Origin: a virus
Direction: 5' to 3' (one strand)
Length of the DNA: 64,000 bases
IMG/VR virus record: IMGVR_UViG_3300013103_000005
Span: 1 to 64,000 of that record
The stretch's first letter is position 1; each line of letters opens with the position of its first letter. The translations under genes were made by a program, and so were the position numbers. The notes beneath the pieces were generated by a model. The model made no database searches and had not been told where the DNA came from. It saw only the letters and a list, made by a program, of their open reading frames with translations. Below are positions 1,628 through 18,747 of this stretch, piece after piece.

Positions 1628-2260
1628 TTGAAAATGCTCAGAAAGTTAGCAAATAGATTAAGAGCTCAAAATAAAAGAAAACGTAAGAAGAAAGTAGATT
1701 TGCCTAGAGAAAATATTCTTCCTCCTAGGGAATATTTGCCTCCTCGGATGAGTTACAGCGAACAAGCTTTAGTTAGTAAGTTTAAGAAAGTCGCAGAAGT
1801 TCCTAGAGATTTATTTAGACTAATAGACGAAGATGCTAAACAAGGTTATTTATCAACTAAAACGATAAATTATCTCAAAGATTTATTTAGTAAAGGACAG
1901 CAGAAAGTAATAGATTGGTTATTAAATAATCCTGACTTTCTTGAATATGTACTTGAATTACGAGCAGAAGTTTATGATGATACTTCTGTTGATGGGGTTG
2001 GATATGCCGTAGAGTGTTTTTTAGAAGATTATTATCAAGAAACAATTTTTGATGATGAATATATTGGGGATTATATGAGTAAGAAAGGATTTTCAAACGA
2101 AGAAATATTAAATCTTTATAAATTATTTAGTAAGTATTCTTTTTATGCTAATAAATTTGATTATGAATATACGAGAGGTTCGAGGGTAGAGCGGGAGTAC
2201 GATGATATATTGATTCGCGAAAGAAAGGAAAGACGATATGAGGAAGAAGAGATATGGTAA
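1628..2260 (+). CDS. Hypothetical, possible internal head protein
   Basis: SD AAGGAG. Basic N-terminus (LRKLANRLRAQ) followed by an acidic body. Confidence 0.5.
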   Translation: MKMLRKLANRLRAQNKRKRKKKVDLPRENILPPREYLPPRMSYSEQALVSKFKKVAEVPRDLFRLIDEDAKQGYLSTKTINYLKDLFSKGQQKVIDWLLNNPDFLEYVLELRAEVYDDTSVDGVGYAVECFLEDYYQETIFDDEYIGDYMSKKGFSNEEILNLYKLFSKYSFYANKFDYEYTRGSRVEREYDDILIRERKERRYEEEEIW

Positions 2261-2730
2261 ATATTATTTCCAATGTAGATGGAAGATTAATAATCAAAGA
2301 TTTGAATTTAACATTTACTTATAAAGGCCAGTTAATAACTATTAAAGATGAGGCATTTAACTTATCCAAAGATATTAAAGAAGCATTAAACAAAGGTTAT
2401 ATAACAATTATTAAAAAATCTCCTATTATTAAAAAAGAACAAAAAATTCCTAGAAATAATAATCGGGATTTAGATAACTTAATCAAAGAATTAAAAAGTA
2501 TTTTAAATGAATTAAAACAACAAACTATACAGAAAGAAGTGATTGTTAAAGAAGTTCAAAAAACCAGTTCTAACGAGGATTCTGATATTGAATATACAGA
2601 CCCATCGTTGTTGGCAGATATATCTCATACATTAAGCAAAGATTATAAAGCTCACTTAAGTCCAAAAACTTCTAAAGGGGATAAGATAGATAAATCGCAA
2701 ATAGAAAACTTAAAAAGTTTAACGCATTAA
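2254..2730 (+). CDS. Hypothetical coiled-coil protein; N-terminal domain paralogous to 8639..9400
   Basis: GRLIIKDLNL..KG..SKDIKEALNKGYI aligns by eye with GILRILDLDL..KG..SSSLKNCLKAGWI. Confidence 0.55.
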   Translation: MVNIISNVDGRLIIKDLNLTFTYKGQLITIKDEAFNLSKDIKEALNKGYITIIKKSPIIKKEQKIPRNNNRDLDNLIKELKSILNELKQQTIQKEVIVKEVQKTSSNEDSDIEYTDPSLLADISHTLSKDYKAHLSPKTSKGDKIDKSQIENLKSLTH

Positions 2731-2735
2731 ACTTT
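2714..2735. repeat. Dispersed 22-bp palindrome, copy 1 (centre CGCA)
   Basis: AAAGTTTAACGCATTAAACTTT; contains the stop codon of 2254..2730. Confidence 0.95.
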
Positions 2736-2757
2736 ATTTAAATTTGGGAGGATTGAT

Positions 2758-3738
2758 ATGGGACACGTTGGATTAGATATCGGTACTGCTAATCTAGTAT
2801 CTGCTTTTATGAATGATAATGAAGAAATAGAATATAAAATCCAAAGAGATGCTTATATAGAAATAGAAAGAAATAGATATACAGATAAAATCCTACAAGA
2901 AAGTGGGGTTCAATACGTAGAGTATAACAACAAAACATTTGTATTAGGGACGAATGCTTTTGAATTAGCCAATGTATTTAATAGAGAATGCCAAAGACCA
3001 ATGAAAGATGGTCTTATATCTCACGATGAAGCAGAGTCCGTCCCTGTAATTGAATTGCTAATTCATAGTCTTATAGGCGATGGAAAAGAAGGAGATATAT
3101 GTTGCTTTTCAATCCCTGCTAAGGCAATAGATTCAGATAAAGAAGTATTTTATCACGAAGGGTTATTTAAACAGCTTATATCTAATCAAGGTTATAATCC
3201 TATAACAATAAACGAAGCTTTTGCAGTAATACTTTCAGAATTATCAGAAGATAAATATACAGGAATAGCAATATCCTTTGGAGCAGGATTAACAAATGTT
3301 TCAGTAAGTTATATGGGAACTGAATGTGTATCGTTTTCAGTAAACAGAGGTGGGGATTGGATTGACAAGCAAGTTTCTACTATTTTAGGTATCCCTGCTT
3401 CTAGGGTAGCTGGGGAAAAAGAAAACGAAGAAATAGATTTATGTAGACCGTCAGGACAATTTGAAGTAGCTTTATCTCTAACATACAAAGCACTTATTGA
3501 TTATGTGGTGAATTTAATTGCAGAAAGATTGGTAAAGAGTAAGAAAGTTCCTTATTTTAAAGAACCTATAAATATCATTTGTTCAGGCGGTACTAGTTTA
3601 GCAAAGGGATTTATAGAATTATTTAATGATAAATTTAAGAAAGAAGATTTTCCAATCAAAATTAAAGAAATAAAACTAGCTCAAAATCCTTTATACGCAG
3701 TTGCTAAAGGTTGTTTATTGTCTGCTTTAAGTAGTTAA
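2758..3738 (+). CDS. Actin-like ATPase (MreB/MamK/ParM superfamily)
   Basis: Five actin motifs in order: GLDIGTANL, INEAFA, SFGAGLTN, CSGGTSLAKG, PLYAVAKG. Confidence 0.85.
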   Translation: MGHVGLDIGTANLVSAFMNDNEEIEYKIQRDAYIEIERNRYTDKILQESGVQYVEYNNKTFVLGTNAFELANVFNRECQRPMKDGLISHDEAESVPVIELLIHSLIGDGKEGDICCFSIPAKAIDSDKEVFYHEGLFKQLISNQGYNPITINEAFAVILSELSEDKYTGIAISFGAGLTNVSVSYMGTECVSFSVNRGGDWIDKQVSTILGIPASRVAGEKENEEIDLCRPSGQFEVALSLTYKALIDYVVNLIAERLVKSKKVPYFKEPINIICSGGTSLAKGFIELFNDKFKKEDFPIKIKEIKLAQNPLYAVAKGCLLSALSS

Positions 3739-3761: not shown

Positions 3762-3968
3762 ATGAGGATAGAAAGAAAATCTTGGAGAGGAAGAATGCCT
3801 GGAGGGTATGGATTAGGGCCAGGTGGTGTTTGTATTTGTTTAGATTGTGGAAAGGAAGTTCCTCATACTAGGGGAGTTCCTTGTTATGCTCTTACTTGCC
3901 CTTATTGTGGTGGACCAATGATGAGAAAGGAAGTTATAACTAGATTTCAACAGAGGTTTGTAAGATGA
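3762..3968 (+). CDS. Small Cys-rich metal-binding protein
   Basis: GPGGVCICLDCG..H..G.PC...CPYCG pattern; SD AAGGAG. Confidence 0.65.
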   Translation: MRIERKSWRGRMPGGYGLGPGGVCICLDCGKEVPHTRGVPCYALTCPYCGGPMMRKEVITRFQQRFVR

Positions 3969-4228
3969 ATAGATATATAGAAAAATTTCTCAAGAAGAAA
4001 TTATCAATTTATTGGTATGCCCCGGGAAGGGTTTATAGGCCTACAAGACAAGAATTAGAACCAGATGATACTCCACCCGTGGGTAAACCGGGGCCGTTCT
4101 TTTGTCCTAAATGTAAAACAAAGATGATTAAAAAGCCATATAAGCTGAAGGAATATATTTATATTTGCCCATCTTGTTTCTTTGTAGTATTAGAAAACGA
4201 TTTACTTTCGTTTGTGGAGGAGAAATAA
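3965..4228 (+). CDS. Zn-ribbon protein
   Basis: CPKC...CPSC; ATGA overlap with the previous gene. Confidence 0.6.
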   Translation: MNRYIEKFLKKKLSIYWYAPGRVYRPTRQELEPDDTPPVGKPGPFFCPKCKTKMIKKPYKLKEYIYICPSCFFVVLENDLLSFVEEK

Positions 4229-4921
4229 ATGTTATATAAAATAGGTTGTCCTATTTTATCCCTGCATATTATTGATATTAGGAGAAAGACCGCAAGACTA
4301 AATAAATTTTCTGCTAAAGTTGTAGCAGATTTAGATACTGACAAATATGTATTTCACGATGTAGAAATTTTACATTCTGTTCTTCTTGAAAAAAACAGCG
4401 ATTTTCTTATAAGAAGGGATACTGAAGAGAACATAAACGCTAACTTTGATGCTTGGGATTCTAAAGAGTTATTAAGTTCTTATAAAACATTCTTGAAGAA
4501 CAAAGAGACAGGTGAGCCGGCTGATGTGTTTGTAGAACACGTTCAAGTAAAAGAATTGAGTAAAGGAAAGGTTTTTGACGCTGTTCCTATCATAGATAAA
4601 AAAGGAATCGTTACTATACATTTACTCATAGGGACAGAGAAGAAACACAAGGATTTAATCTCAATGATTGAATCAGGAATTTATAATGCTGTCTCTATGG
4701 GTTGTACTGTAGATTATGTAAGGTGTACTATTTGCGGGGCTAAGACAGAAGATGAATATGCTTGCGAACATTTAGCTTATCATAAAGGAGAGAGACTAAT
4801 AGGGGTAGATGGTAAATTAAGAGTTTGTGCCGAACTTTGTTTCGGCAGTAATTTTTATGATTGTAGTTGGGTACGTTTTCCAGCAGATTCTAAAGCATTG
4901 GTATCGGAAAGAATAGCTTAA
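4229..4921 (+). CDS. Probable prohead (maturation) protease
   Basis: FVEH, AVSMGC.V...CTICG and S.V..PAD motifs; lies before scaffold and capsid genes. Confidence 0.7.
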   Translation: MLYKIGCPILSLHIIDIRRKTARLNKFSAKVVADLDTDKYVFHDVEILHSVLLEKNSDFLIRRDTEENINANFDAWDSKELLSSYKTFLKNKETGEPADVFVEHVQVKELSKGKVFDAVPIIDKKGIVTIHLLIGTEKKHKDLISMIESGIYNAVSMGCTVDYVRCTICGAKTEDEYACEHLAYHKGERLIGVDGKLRVCAELCFGSNFYDCSWVRFPADSKALVSERIA

Positions 4922-4945: not shown

Positions 4946-5737
4946 ATGAAGAAAGGAAAGGTAAGCAAGTCTTTAAAGAGCCTTCTTAGACTTGCTCAGG
5001 AGTTAGACAGGGCTTATGTTCCAACTCCCGAGGATTATACAGAAACAACTTGGGAGGATATCGTAGAAAAGACTTATAACGATAACCCTGTTTATGATGA
5101 TGCTCGTGATGAAGTAAATAAAGCAGCAAGTCGCAAGAAGGCAAGTAAAAAAGTAAGTAAAAAAGTTTTACTCGCACAAGCTAAAATGGCTTACAAATTA
5201 GCAGAACTTCTATTTGACAAAGAAGAATTGGGCGAAGAAAAATTTACAGACCAAGTAGTAGACCTAATGTCTATGCACCCAAGAGCTCTAAGGGATACTT
5301 TAAAGCGTCTAGGTCAAGATGAGGATATCGAAGATATTCCTGATGTCGAAGAAGTCAGGGATATTATTGAAGAAGAGTCTGACCTCGATGTCGAAGAGAC
5401 AGAAGGTCCTGAAGACATCGAAGAGGAACAAGGCGTTGAATTAGGTGCTGATGAAGATGAAGAAGAGAAAGAATCTAAGAAGAAACGCACACAAGATGAA
5501 GAAGACGAGGATAAAGAAGGTCAGGACGAGGATGAGGAAGAGAAGGAAGGACAAGACGAAGACGAGGAAGAAAAAGAATCCTTCTCTGATTTTATAGATG
5601 AGTTAGTTAAAGATGCTAACAAAAAGGACGAGAAGAAAAGGGTTCAAGCTTTAGCTAAGTTGTTCTCTGAAATAAATAAAAAGAAGAAAGCTTCTAAGAA
5701 AGAAATCAAGACCCTAGAAGGTTTTTGGGAGGATTGA
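4946..5737 (+). CDS. Probable capsid scaffold protein
   Basis: Highly charged, tandem (KE)GQDEDEEE repeats; between protease and decoration/capsid genes; strong SD. Confidence 0.6.
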   Translation: MKKGKVSKSLKSLLRLAQELDRAYVPTPEDYTETTWEDIVEKTYNDNPVYDDARDEVNKAASRKKASKKVSKKVLLAQAKMAYKLAELLFDKEELGEEKFTDQVVDLMSMHPRALRDTLKRLGQDEDIEDIPDVEEVRDIIEEESDLDVEETEGPEDIEEEQGVELGADEDEEEKESKKKRTQDEEDEDKEGQDEDEEEKEGQDEDEEEKESFSDFIDELVKDANKKDEKKRVQALAKLFSEINKKKKASKKEIKTLEGFWED

Positions 5738-6444: not shown

Positions 6445-6990
6445 ATGCCTCTCTCACTAGAAGAAAAAGAAGCATTGTTAGGAAAGTTAATTGAAAGTTC
6501 AGAAGGTCGTAGAAAGATAGCACAATCAATGATAAGCCCTCTTCGTAACAAACTTGATTATAGGGCAGTAGGAAGAAAGGCATTAGTAGTAGACCCTCTT
6601 CCTGCAGGTGTTCTTCCATACTATGATAAAGACGTGGATGTTTCTGCTATCATAGTAGCAGAAGATGGAGAAACACCTGAAGCAGTAGTAAGGGGTGAGA
6701 GAATACTTGTTCCTTTATTTGAGTTAGCAACAAACCCCAAAGTAAAAATTACTCAGGTAAAGGAACGTAAGTATGCAATACTTCGCCGTGTACAAGACAA
6801 AGCAGTACAGGCAATTCAGGAGTTAGAAGATACTCGTATTTTCTCTGCTCTTGAAGATGCTTGTGCTATAAATGATTTGACAACAATTAATGTTAGTGGT
6901 TATTTAGATAGAGATTCTCTTGCAGATGCATTTGCACAGATTGAAGCACAAGATTTGAGAGTTGCTAATATATTTATGAACGCCTTGGAT
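6445..6990 (+). CDS. Major capsid protein, exon 1 (HK97-like fold)
   Basis: 182 codons ending ...FMNALD; joins in frame to FGDIRKWG at 8242, giving a 283-aa spliced product. Confidence 0.85.
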
Positions 6991-8241
6991 TACTGCCGTA
7001 AGGCAGCGTAGTCCCCTATACCAGTGATGGTATAGTGCAAATCGGGTCAATTGCGGGAAAGACCTGTTAAGCTCTGGGTACTCCCCATCGCCGTGAGGTA
7101 GATGGTATAGTAAAAAGCCCAGAGATAGGGTTAATCCGCAGCCGAGCATCTTTAAGGAAGCTAAAATGAGTGTTAAAGAATATAGAAAAGTTACCTGTCC
7201 TATATGTGGTAAGAAGTTTAGAGTTTTACATCCTAACGGTCATTTAAAAGTTCACGGCATTACCACACTTGAAGAATTTTATCGTAGATTTCCAGAAGAG
7301 ATGACAAGTTATACTGCTTATTCATATTCTCAAATTAGACCTAAATCAATTGAAGGGTTTGATTTGAGAGGGTTAAAAATCTCCGCTACTAAAAGAGGTA
7401 TAACTCTTCACCGAGCATTGCAATTAAAAAAGAAAGAAAAGGAATTTAAGAAGTACGCTGAAGAAGGTGAAGAGTTAGTTACTTGTAAAATATGCGGAGG
7501 TAGATTTAAGAGGCTCGCAGCTCATTTGCATTATAAACACGGAATAACGACCAAAGAATATTTGGATTTGTTTAAGGGAGGATTGACTTGTTCCAAGAAA
7601 TCAGGGCGGAAGACTGCTGAAACTTGTAATGCTAAAGGAATTTTACAAAAGGCAAGGGAGAATGCTAAAATCGGATTGCTTAAGAAATATGGAGTTGATA
7701 ACCCTATGAAAGTTCCCGAAATTGTATTAAAGCAGTTTAAGTCTTCTGTTCGTCATGTTAAAAGTAAACCAGAAATCCTATTAGAAACCTTGTTGGATTC
7801 TAATTTTACTGGTCAGTTTGTTTATAATGGGTGTGGTAATGCCGATATAATGATTGGGCATAGGATTCCTGACTTTATACATACTTCTAAAAAGAAAGTT
7901 ATAGAAGTTTTTGGAGTTTATTGGCACGGTGAAAGAAGGACAGGTATTCCTAATGATGTTCATGAAAAAGAACGTATTGAAGAATATAGAAAAGAAGGTT
8001 ATGATTGCTTGGTGATTTGGGAAAATGAACTTGATGATGTAAATAAAGTTTGTAAGAAAATAGAAAGCTTCCTTAAAGATGAAGGTTCAGAGACCGAAGC
8101 TAGTAAGGGAGACCTTATTAGCGGAACCCGACATCCTATCGTAAAGGTAGGATGATGATACGGTCCGACCTCTACCGAAAGGTAGAGAGGTAGGCAGAAA
8201 TGACCTACCCGCTTCCTTAATAGGAAGTAGTAACAAACGTG
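6991..8241 (+). ncRNA. Group I self-splicing intron (1251 nt) in the major capsid gene
   Basis: P1 GGAU|UAC pairs with GUAGUCC, with a U.G at the splice site. P AAUUGCGGGAAA, Q AAUCCGCAGC, R GUUCAGAGACCG, S GAUACGGUCC. Terminal G at 8241. Confidence 0.9.
7166..8155 (+). CDS. Intron-encoded homing endonuclease (two C2H2-like Zn fingers plus Vsr/PD-(D/E)XK-like domain)
   Basis: VTCPICG..F...H...HGIT twice; YGVDNPMK; SKPE..PDF..IEVFGVYWHG..GY..LVIWE. Confidence 0.8.
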   Translation: MSVKEYRKVTCPICGKKFRVLHPNGHLKVHGITTLEEFYRRFPEEMTSYTAYSYSQIRPKSIEGFDLRGLKISATKRGITLHRALQLKKKEKEFKKYAEEGEELVTCKICGGRFKRLAAHLHYKHGITTKEYLDLFKGGLTCSKKSGRKTAETCNAKGILQKARENAKIGLLKKYGVDNPMKVPEIVLKQFKSSVRHVKSKPEILLETLLDSNFTGQFVYNGCGNADIMIGHRIPDFIHTSKKKVIEVFGVYWHGERRTGIPNDVHEKERIEEYRKEGYDCLVIWENELDDVNKVCKKIESFLKDEGSETEASKGDLISGTRHPIVKVG

Positions 8242-8547
8242 TTCGGCGACATAAGAAAATGGGGTAGAGACCAGTTAGATATTGAGACTCAGAGAGAATT
8301 ACTCCAGACTGGTATTATGGGAAGAATTTGGAATGCTCAGATAACAACTTCTAGGGTAATACCTAGAGGTAAGGTATTTGTATGCACTGAGCCTGAGTTC
8401 TTAGGTGTAATGCCTATTAGAATCGAGCTTACAGTATGGCCAGCTGATGACCCAGAGAATAGGATGATTGGTTGGTCTATATTTGAGCAAATAGGTATTG
8501 GTATTCATAATGTCAACGGTGTAATCGATATTAACATTGTAAGATAA
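8242..8547 (+). CDS. Major capsid protein, exon 2
   Basis: In-frame continuation of exon 1; capsid-like C-terminus G.IWNAQI..SR.IP.G.V. Confidence 0.85.
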   Translation, partial: FGDIRKWGRDQLDIETQRELLQTGIMGRIWNAQITTSRVIPRGKVFVCTEPEFLGVMPIRIELTVWPADDPENRMIGWSIFEQIGIGIHNVNGVIDINIVR

Positions 8548-8638: not shown

Positions 8639-9400
8639 ATGCGTAAATTTGTATCTACAAGACCTGGTATTTTAAGAATATTAGATTTAGATTTGATAGT
8701 AAAGAAAGGCGAGGTTTTTGAACTAGACGAAAGGGACGTAGCAGTTTCTTCTAGTTTAAAAAATTGTTTAAAAGCAGGATGGATAAAAGAGATTAAAGAT
8801 AATGAAACTCCTAGAAAAACTATTTCCTCAGATAAAAGCTCTGAAGATAAGCTTGAAGTCGTTGAAGAAAGGATTAAAGAAACGCAAAAAGAAATCCCAA
8901 TTCAAGAAAAGAAAAGAAAGGTAGAAGTAGGAAGACTTAAAAAGCTTAAAGAATTTAAACAACAAAATCCTGGAATAATAGATTCTAGTTTGCCTATTGA
9001 AGAGCAATTAAAACAATATGAAGAATATACAACGGGTGGGAAAGAAATAGTCGTAGAATCCAAACAAGAACAAAAACGAGAGAAAGAAAAACCTAAGAAA
9101 GAAAAGGTTAAGCATAATGTAGCCCCTGAGAGAACTTTACCTTCTAATTGGGATTCATTACACTGGAAAGAAAGGATAAAGTTTTTAAAAGAAAATGGGA
9201 AATCAATCAGCACTAGAGAGCTGGAAGAACTAATTGACGAAAGTTCTCCCGCTGTCAGTGCTGTTATTAAAAGAATATTATTAGATAGAAAGAAAGAACA
9301 ATTAGAATCTAAAGAAGAACTAAAACAAGAAGATGTTGAAGAAAATGGGGATATAGATTTTGAAGAAGAGGATGAGGATTTAGAAGAGATTGAAGTTTAG
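8639..9400 (+). CDS. Hypothetical charged head-region protein
   Basis: SD AAGGAGG; N-terminal domain shared with 2254..2730; acidic tail. Confidence 0.55.
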   Translation: MRKFVSTRPGILRILDLDLIVKKGEVFELDERDVAVSSSLKNCLKAGWIKEIKDNETPRKTISSDKSSEDKLEVVEERIKETQKEIPIQEKKRKVEVGRLKKLKEFKQQNPGIIDSSLPIEEQLKQYEEYTTGGKEIVVESKQEQKREKEKPKKEKVKHNVAPERTLPSNWDSLHWKERIKFLKENGKSISTRELEELIDESSPAVSAVIKRILLDRKKEQLESKEELKQEDVEENGDIDFEEEDEDLEEIEV

Positions 9401-11986: not shown

Positions 11987-13282
11987 ATGACTAAACAAAT
12001 ATCAGAATTAAAATCTCCTCGTAATGTTTTTGTATTATCTACTTATTTTAGAGATGCTTTGGATATAAGATGGGATAATCCAGCCTTAATACCCGAAAAT
12101 TATGCTTTCGATATAGCTGGATGTAATATATACAGGTCTAACGATAACCCAGAAGGGCCTTATGTTAGATTAAACGATACTCCAATAACTGCTTTATCTT
12201 ATAGAGATTCTTTAAAAAATATTAGGATTACAGAACGAATACCTACAGGTAAAATAACTTATGGAACAACTCCGACTTGCGATTATATAATTCAAGTAAG
12301 CAATTATCCAATCGTTAGACCTGGAACAATTGACGAACACGATTTTAATACAGATGTAACTACTGTAAAAGTTATAATAGATGGTTATGAAGTAACTCCT
12401 ATTAAATTAGATGGACCGGAAGGAAAGATTTATTTAGATAGATATAAATGGTTTGATGTACAAACTAACAAATGGATAAATCCTATTTTACCAACTAAAA
12501 AAACGGTTATTCAGATAGGCGAAAATATTTATATAAGTCCAAGTAATTTTATAGGCCAATCTCAAGGTAAAGATTCTGTAGTAGAAGTTAGTTATAATTA
12601 CATTTCTCATATTGTAAGAACTAATCTAGATAAAAGACTTTATTATAAAGTTACAACTGTTACGACTGACGGTTATGAATCCAGGTTAGAAGAAACTGAA
12701 CCTCACTCTGTAAGGGAGATTGAGAGATTAGATTATATATGGAAAGAAGCTATTAGAAGAAACAGATGGATTTTACAACAAGCAGGGCATAGAGTAAAAT
12801 TATATTTTAGGCCTTGGTTTGGTGAACGTTGCGAATGTTGGGAAGAAAGAGGAAGAAATCAAGCAAGATTAGATTGTAAAATTTGTTATGGTACTGGATT
12901 TAAAAGCGGGTATTTAGGGCCGATTGATATTTTAATAGCTCCACCTGATACAGAAAAGAATTTAGAATTAACTGATTTAGGTTTATCTTTAAATTGGGTA
13001 ATATCTACTTGGACAGGGCCGACTCCAGAAATAAATCAAAGAGATTTAATTATAGATAAAGACAATAGAAGATTTACAATCGGACCTGTAAATAAAAAAT
13101 CTTGTAGGGGAATGATTTTGCAACAACATTTTGATATTAGTTTATTAGATGAGACTGATATTAGATATGAAATACCAGTTACAGGATTAGAAGCTTTACA
13201 TTATATAACTGAAAAGCCTAATATAGATGATAAGAAAGAGATAAGAGGAAGGACTAAAGTTTTTGAGGATATTATTTACTAA
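11987..13282 (+). CDS. Probable neck/head-closure protein (FN3-like plus CxC..CxxCxGxG)
   Basis: P.NV....W....G.NIYRS; RCECW...CKICYGTGF. Confidence 0.5.
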   Translation: MTKQISELKSPRNVFVLSTYFRDALDIRWDNPALIPENYAFDIAGCNIYRSNDNPEGPYVRLNDTPITALSYRDSLKNIRITERIPTGKITYGTTPTCDYIIQVSNYPIVRPGTIDEHDFNTDVTTVKVIIDGYEVTPIKLDGPEGKIYLDRYKWFDVQTNKWINPILPTKKTVIQIGENIYISPSNFIGQSQGKDSVVEVSYNYISHIVRTNLDKRLYYKVTTVTTDGYESRLEETEPHSVREIERLDYIWKEAIRRNRWILQQAGHRVKLYFRPWFGERCECWEERGRNQARLDCKICYGTGFKSGYLGPIDILIAPPDTEKNLELTDLGLSLNWVISTWTGPTPEINQRDLIIDKDNRRFTIGPVNKKSCRGMILQQHFDISLLDETDIRYEIPVTGLEALHYITEKPNIDDKKEIRGRTKVFEDIIY

Positions 13283-13635
13283 TGGAAGATTTTTTATACC
13301 ATTATAAAGCATTTGTTACAAGAGTAATTGATGGTGATACTTTTGAATGTGAATTAGATTTAGGTTTTAAAATAAAGAAATCTAAAGTAAGAGTTAGATT
13401 ATTAGGTGTTAATACCCCTGAGTTACATTCTAAAGACGCAGAAGAAAAGAAGGAAGCTTATAGAGCCAAGGAATTTACTAAACAGGAAATAGATAAAAAA
13501 GAAGTAATAATTAAATCAAATAAAGTAGATGCTTTTGGAAGATGTTTAGCAATAGTCTATTATAAACAAGGTGATGATTGGATAAATCTAAATTCGCTCT
13601 TATTAAAGAAGAGACTAGCTAAGGTATACAAATAA
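13282..13635 (+). CDS. Thermonuclease (SNase-like)
   Basis: RVIDGDT, VRLLGVNTPE and DAFGRCLA motifs. Confidence 0.85.
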   Translation: MEDFLYHYKAFVTRVIDGDTFECELDLGFKIKKSKVRVRLLGVNTPELHSKDAEEKKEAYRAKEFTKQEIDKKEVIIKSNKVDAFGRCLAIVYYKQGDDWINLNSLLLKKRLAKVYK

Positions 13636-14141
13636 TGTTAAAAATCTCTATATCCCCAAAGAAAGTAAATCTACCTAAGTGGATTAGGAGAGAAGAATAT
13701 TTTCCTATACTTTTAAATAAAATAGCTAAAACAGGAAGACAAGCGATAAGGAAAAGAATTTTAAATTCTGCTTGGAAATCTCCTAGGGCTGCTAAATCAA
13801 TAGCTAGGGATTTACACGTTCTTAAAAAGAAGAGGGTAGTTAGTTTTTACTTTACTAAACCTTATGTAATTTACCATGAATATGGTGTTAAACGGCAAAA
13901 GATGAGATGGCTGGTAGGGATAAGTAAAGTAATCCCTATCAGAAGAAATAATGAAATTATATTTAGATGGGCTCCAAAGACTTTAAAGGACGCTTGGGTA
14001 CATCCTGGATTAAAAGCTAAACACTTTTTTAGAAAAGGAATTGAAGATTTAAAGAAGAAATTTAAGTCAATTACCAATAGAACGCTAAAAAAGTTTATTG
14101 CTAAATATAAAAAGACAACTCCTCCAAAGATGCCATTTTAG
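13635..14141 (+). CDS. Probable tail-completion/neck protein
   Basis: Basic; Y..YHEYG and HPG.KAKHFFRKG motifs (HK97 gp10-like). Confidence 0.5.
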   Translation: MLKISISPKKVNLPKWIRREEYFPILLNKIAKTGRQAIRKRILNSAWKSPRAAKSIARDLHVLKKKRVVSFYFTKPYVIYHEYGVKRQKMRWLVGISKVIPIRRNNEIIFRWAPKTLKDAWVHPGLKAKHFFRKGIEDLKKKFKSITNRTLKKFIAKYKKTTPPKMPF

Positions 14142-14155
14142 AAAGGAGTTTATTT

Positions 14156-14413
14156 ATGAAGAAAGTTTCAATAAGGCCATCTGAAGCAGAAGTATTAGAT
14201 TTCCTTAAGAGAAGACTTGGTTATGATTTTATTGAGATTAAAGAAGAGTTTGAAGATTTAGTTAAAACAGTTTTAATGGATTTAGAGTATTTAAACTCCT
14301 GGATTGAAAGAGGAGATATAGATAAAACTTCCCAAGCTATGTTTGATTTAAAACGTTCTGTTATGCGTTTGATGAATTATACTGATTTTTTAAATAAGAT
14401 TAAGAAGTTCTAG
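14156..14413 (+). CDS. Hypothetical protein
   Basis: SD AAAGGAG. Confidence 0.5.
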   Translation: MKKVSIRPSEAEVLDFLKRRLGYDFIEIKEEFEDLVKTVLMDLEYLNSWIERGDIDKTSQAMFDLKRSVMRLMNYTDFLNKIKKF

Positions 14414-14415
14414 CT

Positions 14416-15594
14416 ATGTATTATATTCTTACAAGACAATTAAAAAATATAATCAAAGACACTTTAAGGGAATGTTTTGATACTCATCCTAAATACAAAG
14501 AAATAGATGTTCAAACTTCTTATGTATTTAAAGAACGTCCTTCTTATGCAATAGTAGTAAACTCTACAGGAACAAGTTTTACAAAGTTATCAGCCGACCA
14601 ACAAGTAGGACATTTATATAGTTATGCAATTTTAGCTAGAATTTTAGGCAAACCCTGTACCTCGATAGAATGGATAAAAGAAGATAAACAATATTTAGAC
14701 GAAGGGGGAGAAATAGCTCCTGCTGGTAAATATTTTATAGAGATAATCTCTGATAAAGAATTTGAATTAAATATACAATATAAAGTTTTTAATGAAGTAA
14801 TTATAGAAAATGCTCAAGGCGGGGAATATATATTTCAATTACAACATAAAAATGTAGTGCCTGGTACTTTATCTATGGAAGCCGAAGACCCGTTTACAGT
14901 ATTCGAGGAAGATAAATTTGAAGTAGATTATGAAGAAGGGATTATTAGATGGACAGAACCGGGTGGTATTCCCGAAGGTTGGACGATAAGGGTTACTTAT
15001 GAATATTTGGACCCTAATAGCCCTAAGATTTTCAATTATGAACCTCTTCACTATAACAACGAAGCAATACCGGGAATTATATTAGCCTTTGGAGATAGAA
15101 TTCATATAGGGGATAAGCAAGTAGTTATAGTTCAGGAACAAAGGTCAATAAGTCATTATTTGCTAGGTGGGAAATCTAATATTGATATTGATTGCGAAAT
15201 AGTTGCTCAAGACTTATCTTCTTTAGAAGAAATAACAGATTTAGCAACGATGTATTTATGGGGATTAAAAAGAGATGATTTATATAGGGAGTATGGAGTT
15301 TTTATAGATGATATTTCAATAGGTGGAGAATCAGCTGAAGTTAGAGACGATACTGCGGGAGAATTAGAATATAGAAATACAGTTTCATTAAGTTGTATTT
15401 GCGATTGGGAAATAGCCTTTCCTTTACCTAGAGTATTATCGGTAATATGGCCATATACAAGACTTGATGGTCCTGATATTAAGGAAGATGATTTACCAAA
15501 TTACACCCCGACAAGAGCAAGTACTTTAGAAGTTACGACTTCTTTTGAGCCTTTTATATTTGGATTTTCTTATAGTGGTGAAAGGATAATATGA
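14416..15594 (+). CDS. Probable tail terminator/completion protein
   Basis: Upstream of the sheath gene; contains an Ig-like insertion (VDYEEGII). Confidence 0.45.
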   Translation: MYYILTRQLKNIIKDTLRECFDTHPKYKEIDVQTSYVFKERPSYAIVVNSTGTSFTKLSADQQVGHLYSYAILARILGKPCTSIEWIKEDKQYLDEGGEIAPAGKYFIEIISDKEFELNIQYKVFNEVIIENAQGGEYIFQLQHKNVVPGTLSMEAEDPFTVFEEDKFEVDYEEGIIRWTEPGGIPEGWTIRVTYEYLDPNSPKIFNYEPLHYNNEAIPGIILAFGDRIHIGDKQVVIVQEQRSISHYLLGGKSNIDIDCEIVAQDLSSLEEITDLATMYLWGLKRDDLYREYGVFIDDISIGGESAEVRDDTAGELEYRNTVSLSCICDWEIAFPLPRVLSVIWPYTRLDGPDIKEDDLPNYTPTRASTLEVTTSFEPFIFGFSYSGERII

Positions 15595-15960: not shown

Positions 15961-15975
15961 TAGGAGGTGGATATT

Positions 15976-18747
15976 ATGGGAAACGGTCCTTTTACAAGTT
16001 ACGTAGGTCCAAATGTATTTACAAGAACTAAAACAGAAAGAACTTTACCTTCCCTATTAGCGGGTGTTAGGTTACCTTGCCTTGTAGGCCCGAGTAGGGA
16101 GTATAATGAAGCTAAGAATGTAGAAATTGTAAGAGGTAGTTCAGGAAGAGTTGATATATTAAGAGTTGGTGAGAATGTAAGTTCTCAACTAACAGGTACA
16201 AATAGAAACTTCTTTGTAACTCATACTCCTATCGTTACTGGAGAAGGAATAGGCGAGACTACTTATGACCCAAATGATGTTAAAGTTACTGTTAACGGCG
16301 AACAAGTTTCTGTTTTATCTGTAAATGGTGAAACTGGAGAGATAACTTTAGTAGAAGCTCCTAAAGCAACAGATATAGTTTTAGTAGATTATTACTTTAA
16401 CAGAAAAGATACTTTAGTTACAGATGAAGATATAAGCAATCAAGCTGATGGAAGTAATAAAATATTCTATGTGGCTCATAGACCTATTGTAGATGGTACC
16501 GACAATGGAATCATAACTAATAATCCAAATAAAGTAACGGTTAAGGTTAATGGAAGTCCCGTAACAGTTGAAGAAGTTGTAGGTGAAGATGGTAAAGTAG
16601 TGTTAAAAGATGCTCCTGGTGCAAGCGATACAGTAACAATTACTTATTACTACAACACTTGGAGGGAGACATTTGATTATTTACCTGACAAGAATGTGAG
16701 TGAAATTCTTAAGGTTGGAGATTCTCCTGGAAGAGCAGATTACAGTGCCAAAGAAGATTTTGTATTACTCGTAAACGAAGATGGTGTTTCTACTTTACAT
16801 TGGGGAAATACAACAAAACTTACAATCAAATCTCATACAGATGGAAAAGAATATCTAGACGAAACCCAAATAACTGCTACTCCTGTAGGTGAGAAAATTT
16901 ATATGGAGGTTGCTAGTGGTGCGGTTGATGGTGTTAATAAAGAGTTTACAGTTTCTAATGTAATAACAGAAGGAAATGGGACGGGTAAACCTACAAATGA
17001 CCCTGCTCTCGTTCAAGTTTACGTAGGAACAACAGTATCAGGAGCAATCAGTGCGGGTCAAGTAGACCTTGCTTATATTAAAGGCGATGAAAAGAAAATA
17101 GTATTAAAGAATGCTCCTGTAGCAGGTAATGTTTATGTTAATTACTGGACTTCTAGATTTGGTGACGGTGATTATGATATAGAAGTGGTAACAGAAGGCG
17201 GCCCTGGGGTTGGTGAATATAAAATAACTCCACTTCAAGCAGATTTTGTATCCAGTATAGAAGAAGGAACCCATAATGTAACAGACCCTGATTTTGCTAC
17301 TGAAGGGATAAGATTCCTAACACAACCAAGAACAATGCCTGGATATTCTGTATCCGAGACTATCACCTTAACTTTTACTAACGACCACGAATTTACCGTA
17401 TCTTCTGATAAAGGCGCAGATGGTTCTAGCGGAAGTGGAGAATTAGGAAGAACTTATTTTGATAACAAGACAGGAGTAAGATTTACAATCGACTTTGGCG
17501 TTAATGTAGATTATCAAGCAGGAGATACCTTACAATTTGTAGTAACTCAAAATCCTACTTTCAAAGCAGGAGCATCTATTAACAGATGTATTCCTTCCCT
17601 TAATCTTGTAGTTAGTGATTTGACTAATACAGGTGTAGGTGACGTTACTACTTTAAGCCTGTATGAGAAATCTGGTAAAGAACCTAATGTAGGTGATTTT
17701 TATTATGTAGATTACAAGTATGATAAGAGCGAAGATGATTTTAAAGCAAAAGTATTCTTCAGAGAAGATTTAGACGAAATATTTGCAATTTATGGTGAAG
17801 TTTCTGTAGATAATAAACTTTCTTTAGGTGCTTGGTTAGCTATAAATAACGGTGCTCCGGGAATAATTCTTAAACAAGTTCCTAGAGCAGAAGGTTCTAA
17901 TGAGCCAGCTTACCAATCTTGGGAAGAAGCATTATTAGAGTTAGAAAAACCTGTAGAAGGTAATTACAGACCCAAAGTACTCGTTCCTTTAACAACCGAT
18001 GACGATGTTATAGCTTTGTTTAAGAAACATTGCGAAAGACAATCTTCAATGAGATATAGACAAGAAAGGATATGCTTCTTTGGGTTTCCTGTAGGAACAG
18101 ATTATAAAACAGTTAGAGAAAAGGTGGAAGGAACATTCCGTTCAGAAAGAATGACTGCTCTTTATCCTGACGGGGCTATTTTAGGAATAGTTGATGAGTA
18201 TGGAAATGAAGTAGAGCATATTGTAGATGGTAGTTTTCTAGCCTGCGCTTATGCTGGGGTAGATACAAATCCTGCTTACACTGTAGCAGACCCGAATACA
18301 AGAAGACAAATCGTAGGATTTAAGAGATTTACTAGAACATTATCAGAAGTTGAGATGGACGAAGTAGCTGCAGTTGGGGTAACTGTTATAGAAGACTTAG
18401 ACCCGGTTATGAGAGTAAGACACGCAAGAACAACAAGAGCAGATGACCCATTATTAGTAGAACAAAACATCGTAGAAATAGCAGATTTAGTACAAGAACT
18501 TACAAGAATTAACCTTGATAGATTTATTGGTATTAAATACTTACCTAAAGTTAATGAAGAAATATCTGCTACAGTTTCTGCTATGTTTGATAGACTTATT
18601 CAAGCTGAATACATTACAGATTATCGTAATGTAAAAGTAGAAACCGACCCGAATGCTCCAGACATAGCAAGGGTATCTGCAGAATATAGGCCAGTATTTG
18701 CATTGAACTGGATTGTAGTAACTTATACTTTAAGAGCTAGATTATAA
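15976..18747 (+). CDS. Contractile tail sheath protein with inserted beta-domains
   Basis: Y.GP.VFTR N-terminus; sheath C-terminus (ERICFFG, RFIG, YRPVFALNWIVVT); three repeated inserted domains. ATG 15976 follows GGAGG. Confidence 0.85.
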   Translation: MGNGPFTSYVGPNVFTRTKTERTLPSLLAGVRLPCLVGPSREYNEAKNVEIVRGSSGRVDILRVGENVSSQLTGTNRNFFVTHTPIVTGEGIGETTYDPNDVKVTVNGEQVSVLSVNGETGEITLVEAPKATDIVLVDYYFNRKDTLVTDEDISNQADGSNKIFYVAHRPIVDGTDNGIITNNPNKVTVKVNGSPVTVEEVVGEDGKVVLKDAPGASDTVTITYYYNTWRETFDYLPDKNVSEILKVGDSPGRADYSAKEDFVLLVNEDGVSTLHWGNTTKLTIKSHTDGKEYLDETQITATPVGEKIYMEVASGAVDGVNKEFTVSNVITEGNGTGKPTNDPALVQVYVGTTVSGAISAGQVDLAYIKGDEKKIVLKNAPVAGNVYVNYWTSRFGDGDYDIEVVTEGGPGVGEYKITPLQADFVSSIEEGTHNVTDPDFATEGIRFLTQPRTMPGYSVSETITLTFTNDHEFTVSSDKGADGSSGSGELGRTYFDNKTGVRFTIDFGVNVDYQAGDTLQFVVTQNPTFKAGASINRCIPSLNLVVSDLTNTGVGDVTTLSLYEKSGKEPNVGDFYYVDYKYDKSEDDFKAKVFFREDLDEIFAIYGEVSVDNKLSLGAWLAINNGAPGIILKQVPRAEGSNEPAYQSWEEALLELEKPVEGNYRPKVLVPLTTDDDVIALFKKHCERQSSMRYRQERICFFGFPVGTDYKTVREKVEGTFRSERMTALYPDGAILGIVDEYGNEVEHIVDGSFLACAYAGVDTNPAYTVADPNTRRQIVGFKRFTRTLSEVEMDEVAAVGVTVIEDLDPVMRVRHARTTRADDPLLVEQNIVEIADLVQELTRINLDRFIGIKYLPKVNEEISATVSAMFDRLIQAEYITDYRNVKVETDPNAPDIARVSAEYRPVFALNWIVVTYTLRARL

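Follow-up and report, generated by a model that had tools for sequence, protein, structure and literature searches.

The stretch analysed here (the window) comprises positions 1 to 64,000 of the IMG/VR virus record IMGVR_UViG_3300013103_000005, and its subject is a pair of adjacent genes, P0001 and P0002, at 2254-3738. Composition is phage-like, with about 32% guanine plus cytosine (G+C) and every gene on the + strand. The parent record has 76,116 bases and a CheckV completeness estimate of 18%, which implies a full genome of several hundred kilobases (kb); the window represents part of the genome of a huge tailed phage. An earlier note, made from the sequence alone, had described two packed open reading frames (ORFs) here, the second encoding an intact actin-fold protein between the portal and the prohead protease. 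This description was confirmed by a match to Pfam PF25216, by a model with a mean predicted local distance difference test score (pLDDT) of 93, and by PHROG matches of the flanking genes. P0001 and P0002 are separated by 27 base pairs (bp) and share the + strand within one tightly spaced block of virion genes. The pair contains the following features.

2254-2730, + strand: P0001, assigned as a divergent short member of a phage partner family, 158 amino acids (aa); partner profile E 3.8e-10
2254-2421, + strand: partner N-terminal domain (N-domain), about 55 aa, I-x-D-L-x-L ... G ... S-x-D-[IL] ... G; pLDDT 97-98 (AlphaFold2)
2464-2571, + strand: long helix, residues 71-106, coiled-coil-like spacer; model secondary structure
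2692-2727, + strand: short C-terminal helix, residues 147-158, ...SQIENLKSLTH, candidate actin-docking tail; pLDDT about 63-71
2746-2751, + strand: Shine-Dalgarno-like GGGAGG, 6 nucleotides before the P0002 start codon; read from the sequence
2758-3738, + strand: P0002, volactin-family actin-like ATPase, 326 aa; Pfam PF25216, pLDDT 93, fold matches
2770-2793, + strand: phosphate-1 loop GLDIGTAN, residues 5-12; G9 and T10 invariant, G5, D7 and N12 nearly invariant
3274-3288, + strand: phosphate-2 loop SFGAG, residues 173-177; S173, G175 and G177 invariant (61 family members)
3583-3597, + strand: adenosine motif SGGTS, residues 276-280; G277 and G278 invariant, T279 and S280 nearly invariant

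The volactin-family actin P0002

The Pfam Volactin profile (PF25216) matched P0002 with 282.5 bits (cut-off 35; E 7e-84) over profile positions 3-321 of 321, and the match was confirmed on DNA. Family members were aligned in sets of 16 and of 61 sequences, the latter being P0002 and 60 relatives. In the larger set, 29 columns were invariant, including G9/T10, E153, S173/G175/G177, and G277/G278. The SFGAG loop, which aligns to DIGGG of MreB, had previously been read as a deviation from the phosphate-2 consensus. As S173, G175 and G177 are invariant in phage and bacterial members alike, SFGAG is instead the normal phosphate-2 loop of this family, a hallmark and not a defect. P0002 is a genuine full-length volactin-family actin with every family-invariant nucleotide-binding residue.

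An AlphaFold2 model of P0002 based on the 61-sequence alignment reached a mean pLDDT of 93 and a predicted template modelling score (pTM) of 0.91. Its best matches among solved structures were Caulobacter MreB, MamK, BeeR, ParM, and eukaryotic actins, with template modelling (TM) scores of approximately 0.7. MreB, MamK, and BeeR matched at TM about 0.7 with E 1e-14, and ParM stood at rank 22. The grouping with filament formers rather than with non-filament ASKHA enzymes, on which the earlier reading depended, was thus borne out. Curated profiles of these families fell below their cut-offs on P0002: Pfam MreB_Mbl scored 23.4 (cut-off 27), NCBIfam MreB 23 (293), MamK 23.9 (400), and BeeR 18.2 (530), and FtsA models were likewise far below cut-off.

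These fold matches bear on whether P0002 forms filaments at all. It could instead be a monomeric or dimeric ASKHA ATPase, a chaperone- or EutJ-like helper of head assembly, with P0001 as an unrelated head-assembly factor. Such a role would suit the location of the cassette between portal and protease and the lack in P0001 of the docking tail described below, and the non-filament protein EutJ does appear among the fold matches. However, EutJ appears only at rank 16, and the top 15 matches are all filament formers. Moreover, dynamic filaments have been seen in vivo for the family prototype, VolA of Haloferax volcanii (PMC10869688). The pairing of actin and partner is kept across hundreds of phages and in bacteria, and the location in the head module sets this phage apart. 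We therefore regard a non-filament ATPase as very unlikely.

The partner protein and the distribution of the pair

In phages, the volactin is accompanied by a protein family without a name, for which we built a profile from 27 IMG/VR proteins of other phages, none of them from the window. Partner and gene-order counts cover 80 IMG/VR viral loci carrying the actin. The typical upstream partner is 190-270 aa long and consists of the N-domain (about 55 aa), a spacer that is helical or rich in proline, a FIPxGIV motif, and a tail reading LDDAAxALKALRKKK. Residues D16, L17, S38, and L41 of the N-domain are nearly invariant across the family. An N-domain ORF was present in 55 of the 80 loci and lay directly upstream of the actin in 51. 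The tail module was found in an ORF of 69 loci, with 54 ORFs bearing both elements. In LR745208, a distantly related phage, the profile matched the ORF upstream of the actin at E 1e-30. Absence of synteny in relatives had been named beforehand as grounds for abandoning the earlier reading; with a partner directly upstream in 51 of 80 loci, that objection fails.

P0001 matched the partner profile through its N-domain, at the E value listed above. A word-based search of 5.8 billion proteins returned no relative of P0001, and its kin were detected only by the viral-locus profile. In the AlphaFold2 model, the N-domain (residues 1-54) is confident and followed by the helix at 71-106, while the C-terminal helix has low confidence. 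The build proposed for P0001 in the earlier note accordingly stood in two of its parts, the long helix and an N-domain shared with the ORF at 8639 (31% over 54 residues, a modest likeness), and was left uncertain in its third, the C-terminal helix. Judging from its N-domain, P0001 is a divergent member of a phage-specific partner family that accompanies volactin in huge phages. As a lead, an Atlas structure search (TM 0.78-0.86 by query) placed the N-domain fold at the N-termini of a phage glycosyltransferase cluster and of several clusters of viral proteins.

Volactins of cells have partners as well. In the Planctomycetota loci (L009-L088), a conserved coiled-coil protein without a Pfam match lies upstream of volactin. 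It combines a different N-domain (FDVxK...ELAKKG..VKVLD) with a long coiled coil and a tail reading ESNL...K...GG....LxKLKxL. With E values of 1e-6 to 7e-3, the phage tail profile also matched these upstream partners. In viruses and cells alike, the tail thus accompanies the actin, as would be expected of a docking element. Overall, the pairs of Planctomycetota and Omnitrophota resemble the one in the window in their actins (40-50% identical) and in an upstream coiled-coil partner with a G-x-x-x-x-L-x-K-L-K-x-L tail. They differ in a partner N-domain that is absent from P0001 and in actins with an N-terminal extension. In 19 of 78 bacterial loci, the actin gene is closely followed by another volactin paralog that has a long N-terminal extension. 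This chromosomal volactin-plus-partner system of Planctomycetota appears to be uncharacterised.

The archaeal prototype VolA (HVO_2015; PMC10869688) falls in the same Pfam family as P0002, a likeness drawn through the Pfam profile and not by direct alignment. Both have the S-x-G-x-G phosphate-2 signature found family-wide, and both have an adjacent partner gene, which in Haloferax is the CdpA-like HVO_2016 (PMC12126565). However, one system is archaeal and the other viral. HVO_2016 is a CdpA-like protein with four transmembrane segments, whereas the phage partner is soluble and made of N-domain and helix, and the context is cell shape in Haloferax and virion assembly in the phage.

Actin-type cytoskeletons had been thought rare in phages. 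In a profile-guided IMG/VR scan, at least 496 viral contigs encoded a relative of P0002, many of them 100-500 kb long, so this actin is not rare in phages. Among GenBank phages, volactin was found in only two records, both of huge phages (485 and 595 kb). Five phage records with volactin, two of them at least 94% complete, yielded no tubulin gene. A scan of prokaryote genomes gave at least 580 matches, the best 80 of which were nearly all from metagenome-assembled genomes of Planctomycetota, with a few from Omnitrophota (40-50% identity). A metagenome scan with P0002 gave no match above 40% identity; the closest relative of P0002, with 61% identity, is the metagenomic P0005. A literature search on phage-encoded actin yielded only AlpC of prophage CGP3 and a survey of plasmids and prophages, and no paper describing a phage volactin cassette was found. 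Judged by title, none of the papers found to mention volactin concerns phages, and a search for jumbo or huge phages and actin yielded nothing relevant.

Trees of 103 and 122 sequences placed most viral copies in one clade (59 rows) and the bacterial copies in another (48 rows), with support of 97 and 93, respectively, in the Shimodaira-Hasegawa-like approximate likelihood ratio test (SH-aLRT). P0002 paired with P0005 (support 100), and a quick tree set this pair outside both large clades. Neither a union of P0002 with the main phage clade nor one with the bacterial clade was rejected in approximately unbiased (AU) tests (p 0.82 in both cases), and the free search was suboptimal. A recent capture of the actin from a planctomycete was rejected as unproven, since the AU tests accept either clade.

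The affinity of P0002 to cellular volactins raises another possibility, namely that the phage actin acts on host volactin filaments, by co-assembly, capping, or competition, and thereby alters cell shape, division, or compartments, with no phage cargo involved. P0002 is 47-50% identical to chromosomal Planctomycetota volactins and 32-44% identical to most phage copies. The bacterial loci encode a partner of their own whose tail is related, and placement of P0002 with the bacterial clade was acceptable (p-AU 0.82). Nevertheless, placement with the main phage clade was equally acceptable, and the window has 32% G+C compared with a median of 64% in the bacterial loci. Furthermore, the phages keep a partner family of their own with a phage-only N-domain, and the cassette lies among virion genes and not among early takeover genes. 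On balance, a takeover of the host cytoskeleton seems unlikely.

A few short contigs depart from this division. The volactins of L076 (389-2462), L083, and L085, binned as Patescibacteria or Acidobacteriota, branch with phage copies and not with those of Planctomycetota. After the actin on L076 comes an ORF of 368 aa with a terminal J-domain-like HPD motif. These contigs may be misbinned viral DNA.

Cassette position and a possible role in particle assembly

Two further regions of the window bear on the function of the pair.

14142-14415, + strand: usual cassette slot of relatives, here only an 85-aa ORF (14156-14413); gene-order comparison
8639-9400, + strand: P0003, 253 aa, after the capsid gene; N-domain at 8639-8806, charged region, acidic tail; BLASTP, partner profile

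The cassette of LR745208, like that of 53-54 of the 80 viral loci, is flanked by homologs of the Neck1-like gene at 13635-14141 and of the gene at 14416-15594. This slot is preceded by homologs of 11987-13282 and then 13635-14141, and 14416-15594 is followed by a zinc ribbon and the tail sheath gene (15967-18747). No portal, protease, or capsid homolog lay within 6 kb of the actin in any of the 80 loci. In the window, the cassette instead stands between portal and prohead protease. The head-module location is therefore not conserved; relatives keep the cassette before the tail-sheath block, and in this phage it has moved from the neck/tail-sheath slot into the head module.

The N-domain is also duplicated here. 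The N-termini of P0001 and P0003 are 31% identical over 54 residues by BLASTP (pairwise E 2e-4), a real but modest similarity, and the partner profile matched P0003 at E 0.002. P0001 and P0003 were the two best matches in the genome, and the domain occurs twice here compared with once in each of three other huge-phage genomes. Together, the relocation and the presence of the P0003 N-domain after the capsid gene weakly suggest that some feature of the head is recognised by the N-domain.

An actin-like protein with an adaptor might also position DNA. In a ParMRC-like system, the phage genome, whether an episome or replicating DNA, would be segregated or positioned by the actin and a DNA-binding adaptor, as with ParM/ParR or AlpC/AlpA. 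P0001 has a ParR-like architecture (small N-domain, spacer, C-terminal helix), ParM is among the structural matches of P0002 (rank 22), and prophage CGP3 of Corynebacterium provides a precedent in AlpC/AlpA (PMC4446434). Nevertheless, with gaps of 27 and 23 bp beside the cassette and overlapping ORFs upstream, there is no non-coding space for a centromere. Dispersed palindromes had been suggested as possible sites of action; a scan returned 13 unrelated AT-rich inverted repeats, with no repeated palindrome family and no centromere-like site. Neither P0001 nor P0002 matched ParM/ParR families, the N-domain lacks a match to a DNA-binding fold, and the cassette is inside the structural block. None of the three parts that define ParMRC, namely a ParM-family actin, a ParR ribbon-helix-helix adaptor, and an adjacent repeat centromere, was detected. 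We consider DNA positioning to be highly improbable.

The comparison with ParM/ParR/parC is accordingly an analogy: both pair an actin-fold filament with an adaptor, which in ParMRC docks via a C-terminal helix, but the ParM/ParR family match, the ribbon-helix-helix domain, and the centromere were not found here, and the gene order is opposite. AlpC/AlpA resembles the cassette as a phage-encoded actin-like protein with an adaptor. However, AlpC comes from another lineage of actin-like proteins, and its adaptor AlpA acts in replication by binding phage DNA (compared by description; PMC4446434), whereas the window has no evident DNA site and the cassette a structural context.

We favour a reading in which a phage-made volactin filament, together with its adaptor, is at work during particle assembly, and we put its probability at roughly 0.55. 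P0002 would bind ATP and polymerise into dynamic filaments like those of VolA. The partner would serve as the adaptor, with its C-terminal tail docking on the actin and its conserved N-domain holding a phage-made cargo or anchor. The filaments would thereby spatially organise one step of particle assembly. Polymerisation, docking of the tail on the actin, and holding of cargo by the N-domain are steps that we infer.

Several results weigh against this assignment of an assembly role. Polymerisation has been demonstrated only for Haloferax VolA (PMC10869688) and for no phage or bacterial member of the family. On P0001, the partner-family tail profile reached only E 5.6, over a stretch away from the C-terminus, and bacterial partner profiles for tail and N-domain gave no match. 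With the family tail undetectable, the case for an adaptor in this phage is left with position, architecture, and the N-domain. Foldseek comparison of P0001 with the PDB yielded nothing significant (best E 0.59, to YqbF), and a wide VIA-align search of P0001 matched the long helix alone (Z below 5); neither search linked the N-domain to a named fold or a DNA-binding one. The idea of a cargo is based on a single paralog, P0003, and on gene position. Gene order within a structural block is not proof of late expression, and promoter and terminator scans stayed at chance level.

Two further comparisons of the P0001 C-terminus were made. MAFFT loosely set ...KIDKSQIENLKSLTH of P0001 under the family tail LDDAAxALKALRK. 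Complex prediction of P0002 (with alignment) and P0001 residues 100-158 gave a median score of 0.25 against a mark of 0.32, which speaks neither for nor against binding. The earlier identification of the upstream ORF as an adaptor thus held with respect to conserved companionship with the actin (51 of 80 loci) and did not with respect to the docking tail (E 5.6 in P0001). Taken as a whole, the earlier interpretation is partly supported; binding of actin and adaptor, polymerisation, and transport of capsids or genomes are inferred.

A narrower version of the assembly reading would make the N-domain a capsid- or portal-recognition module, with which huge phages lacking tubulin move or align proheads along volactin filaments. 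We regard this version as doubtful. If correct, it would describe an actin-based counterpart of the capsid-delivery spindle of PhuZ, and the relocation of the cassette would reflect such a function. PhuZ is likewise a phage cytoskeleton in very large, nucleus-forming jumbo phages, where it organises infection and delivers capsids (PMC8314001, PMC9067925). It has a tubulin fold, in contrast to the volactin of the tested phages, which have no tubulin gene.

Phage cytoskeletons are represented mainly by the PhuZ tubulin of nucleus-forming jumbo phages and by a few actin-like proteins that handle DNA. The cassette adds a conserved actin family with its own partner amid the virion-assembly genes of hundreds of half-megabase phages lacking tubulin. 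If the filaments are real, they would represent a second, independent solution for organising assembly inside the cell, and they would offer a way into the uncharacterised volactin-plus-partner systems of Planctomycetota. The window itself adds a natural variant, with the cassette in the head module, the partner tail remodelled, and the N-domain duplicated beside the capsid gene.

Genes surrounding the cassette

The neighbouring genes named above lie at the following positions.

2-1117, + strand: portal protein, C-terminal part; PHROG portal E 1e-17, 29% identity to the LR745208 portal
1628-2260: ORF upstream of P0001, its stop overlapped by the P0001 ATG
4229-4921, + strand: prohead protease; PHROG head maturation protease E 4e-10, homolog in LR745208
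6445-7011 and 8239-8547: capsid gene, in two parts

Downstream of the actin come, in order, two small zinc-ribbon ORFs, the protease, an acidic scaffold-like ORF, the capsid gene, and P0003. LR745208 is a distant relative, with 44-50% identity in the capsid, 38% in the protease, and 29% in the portal. Scans of IMG/VR for close relatives, with the protease and the portal of the window as single proteins, gave no match, and PHROG annotation of the neighbouring genes in LR745208 and LR756511 was mostly blank.

The zinc-ribbon ORFs (CxxC...CxxC; 68 and 87 aa) occupy 3762-4228, between actin and protease, and the second of them (87 aa) has a homolog upstream of the LR745208 protease. The ORF after the protease (4946-5737) encodes an extremely acidic, repeat-rich protein of 263 aa without a family match, likely a scaffold or internal head protein.

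The gene for the major capsid protein is interrupted. Its first part (6445-7011) corresponds to positions 40-219 of PHROG 2522 and its second (8239-8547) to positions 219-315, whereas the capsid ortholog of LR745208 is a single uninterrupted ORF of 291 aa. An ORF for a zinc-finger/DUF559-type homing endonuclease (7166-8155) lies within the split gene. The Rfam Group I intron model matched 8031-8187 with 36 bits (E 5e-7), under its gathering score of 50, and 6981-7284 weakly. The interruption is probably due to a group I intron with an encoded homing endonuclease.

Farther downstream, an endonuclease ORF of 117 aa (13282-13635; PHROG 452, E 4e-32) separates two conserved structural genes that directly adjoin each other in LR745208 (L004, 5430-6818 and 6818-7318). 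This ORF looks like a second mobile endonuclease insertion.

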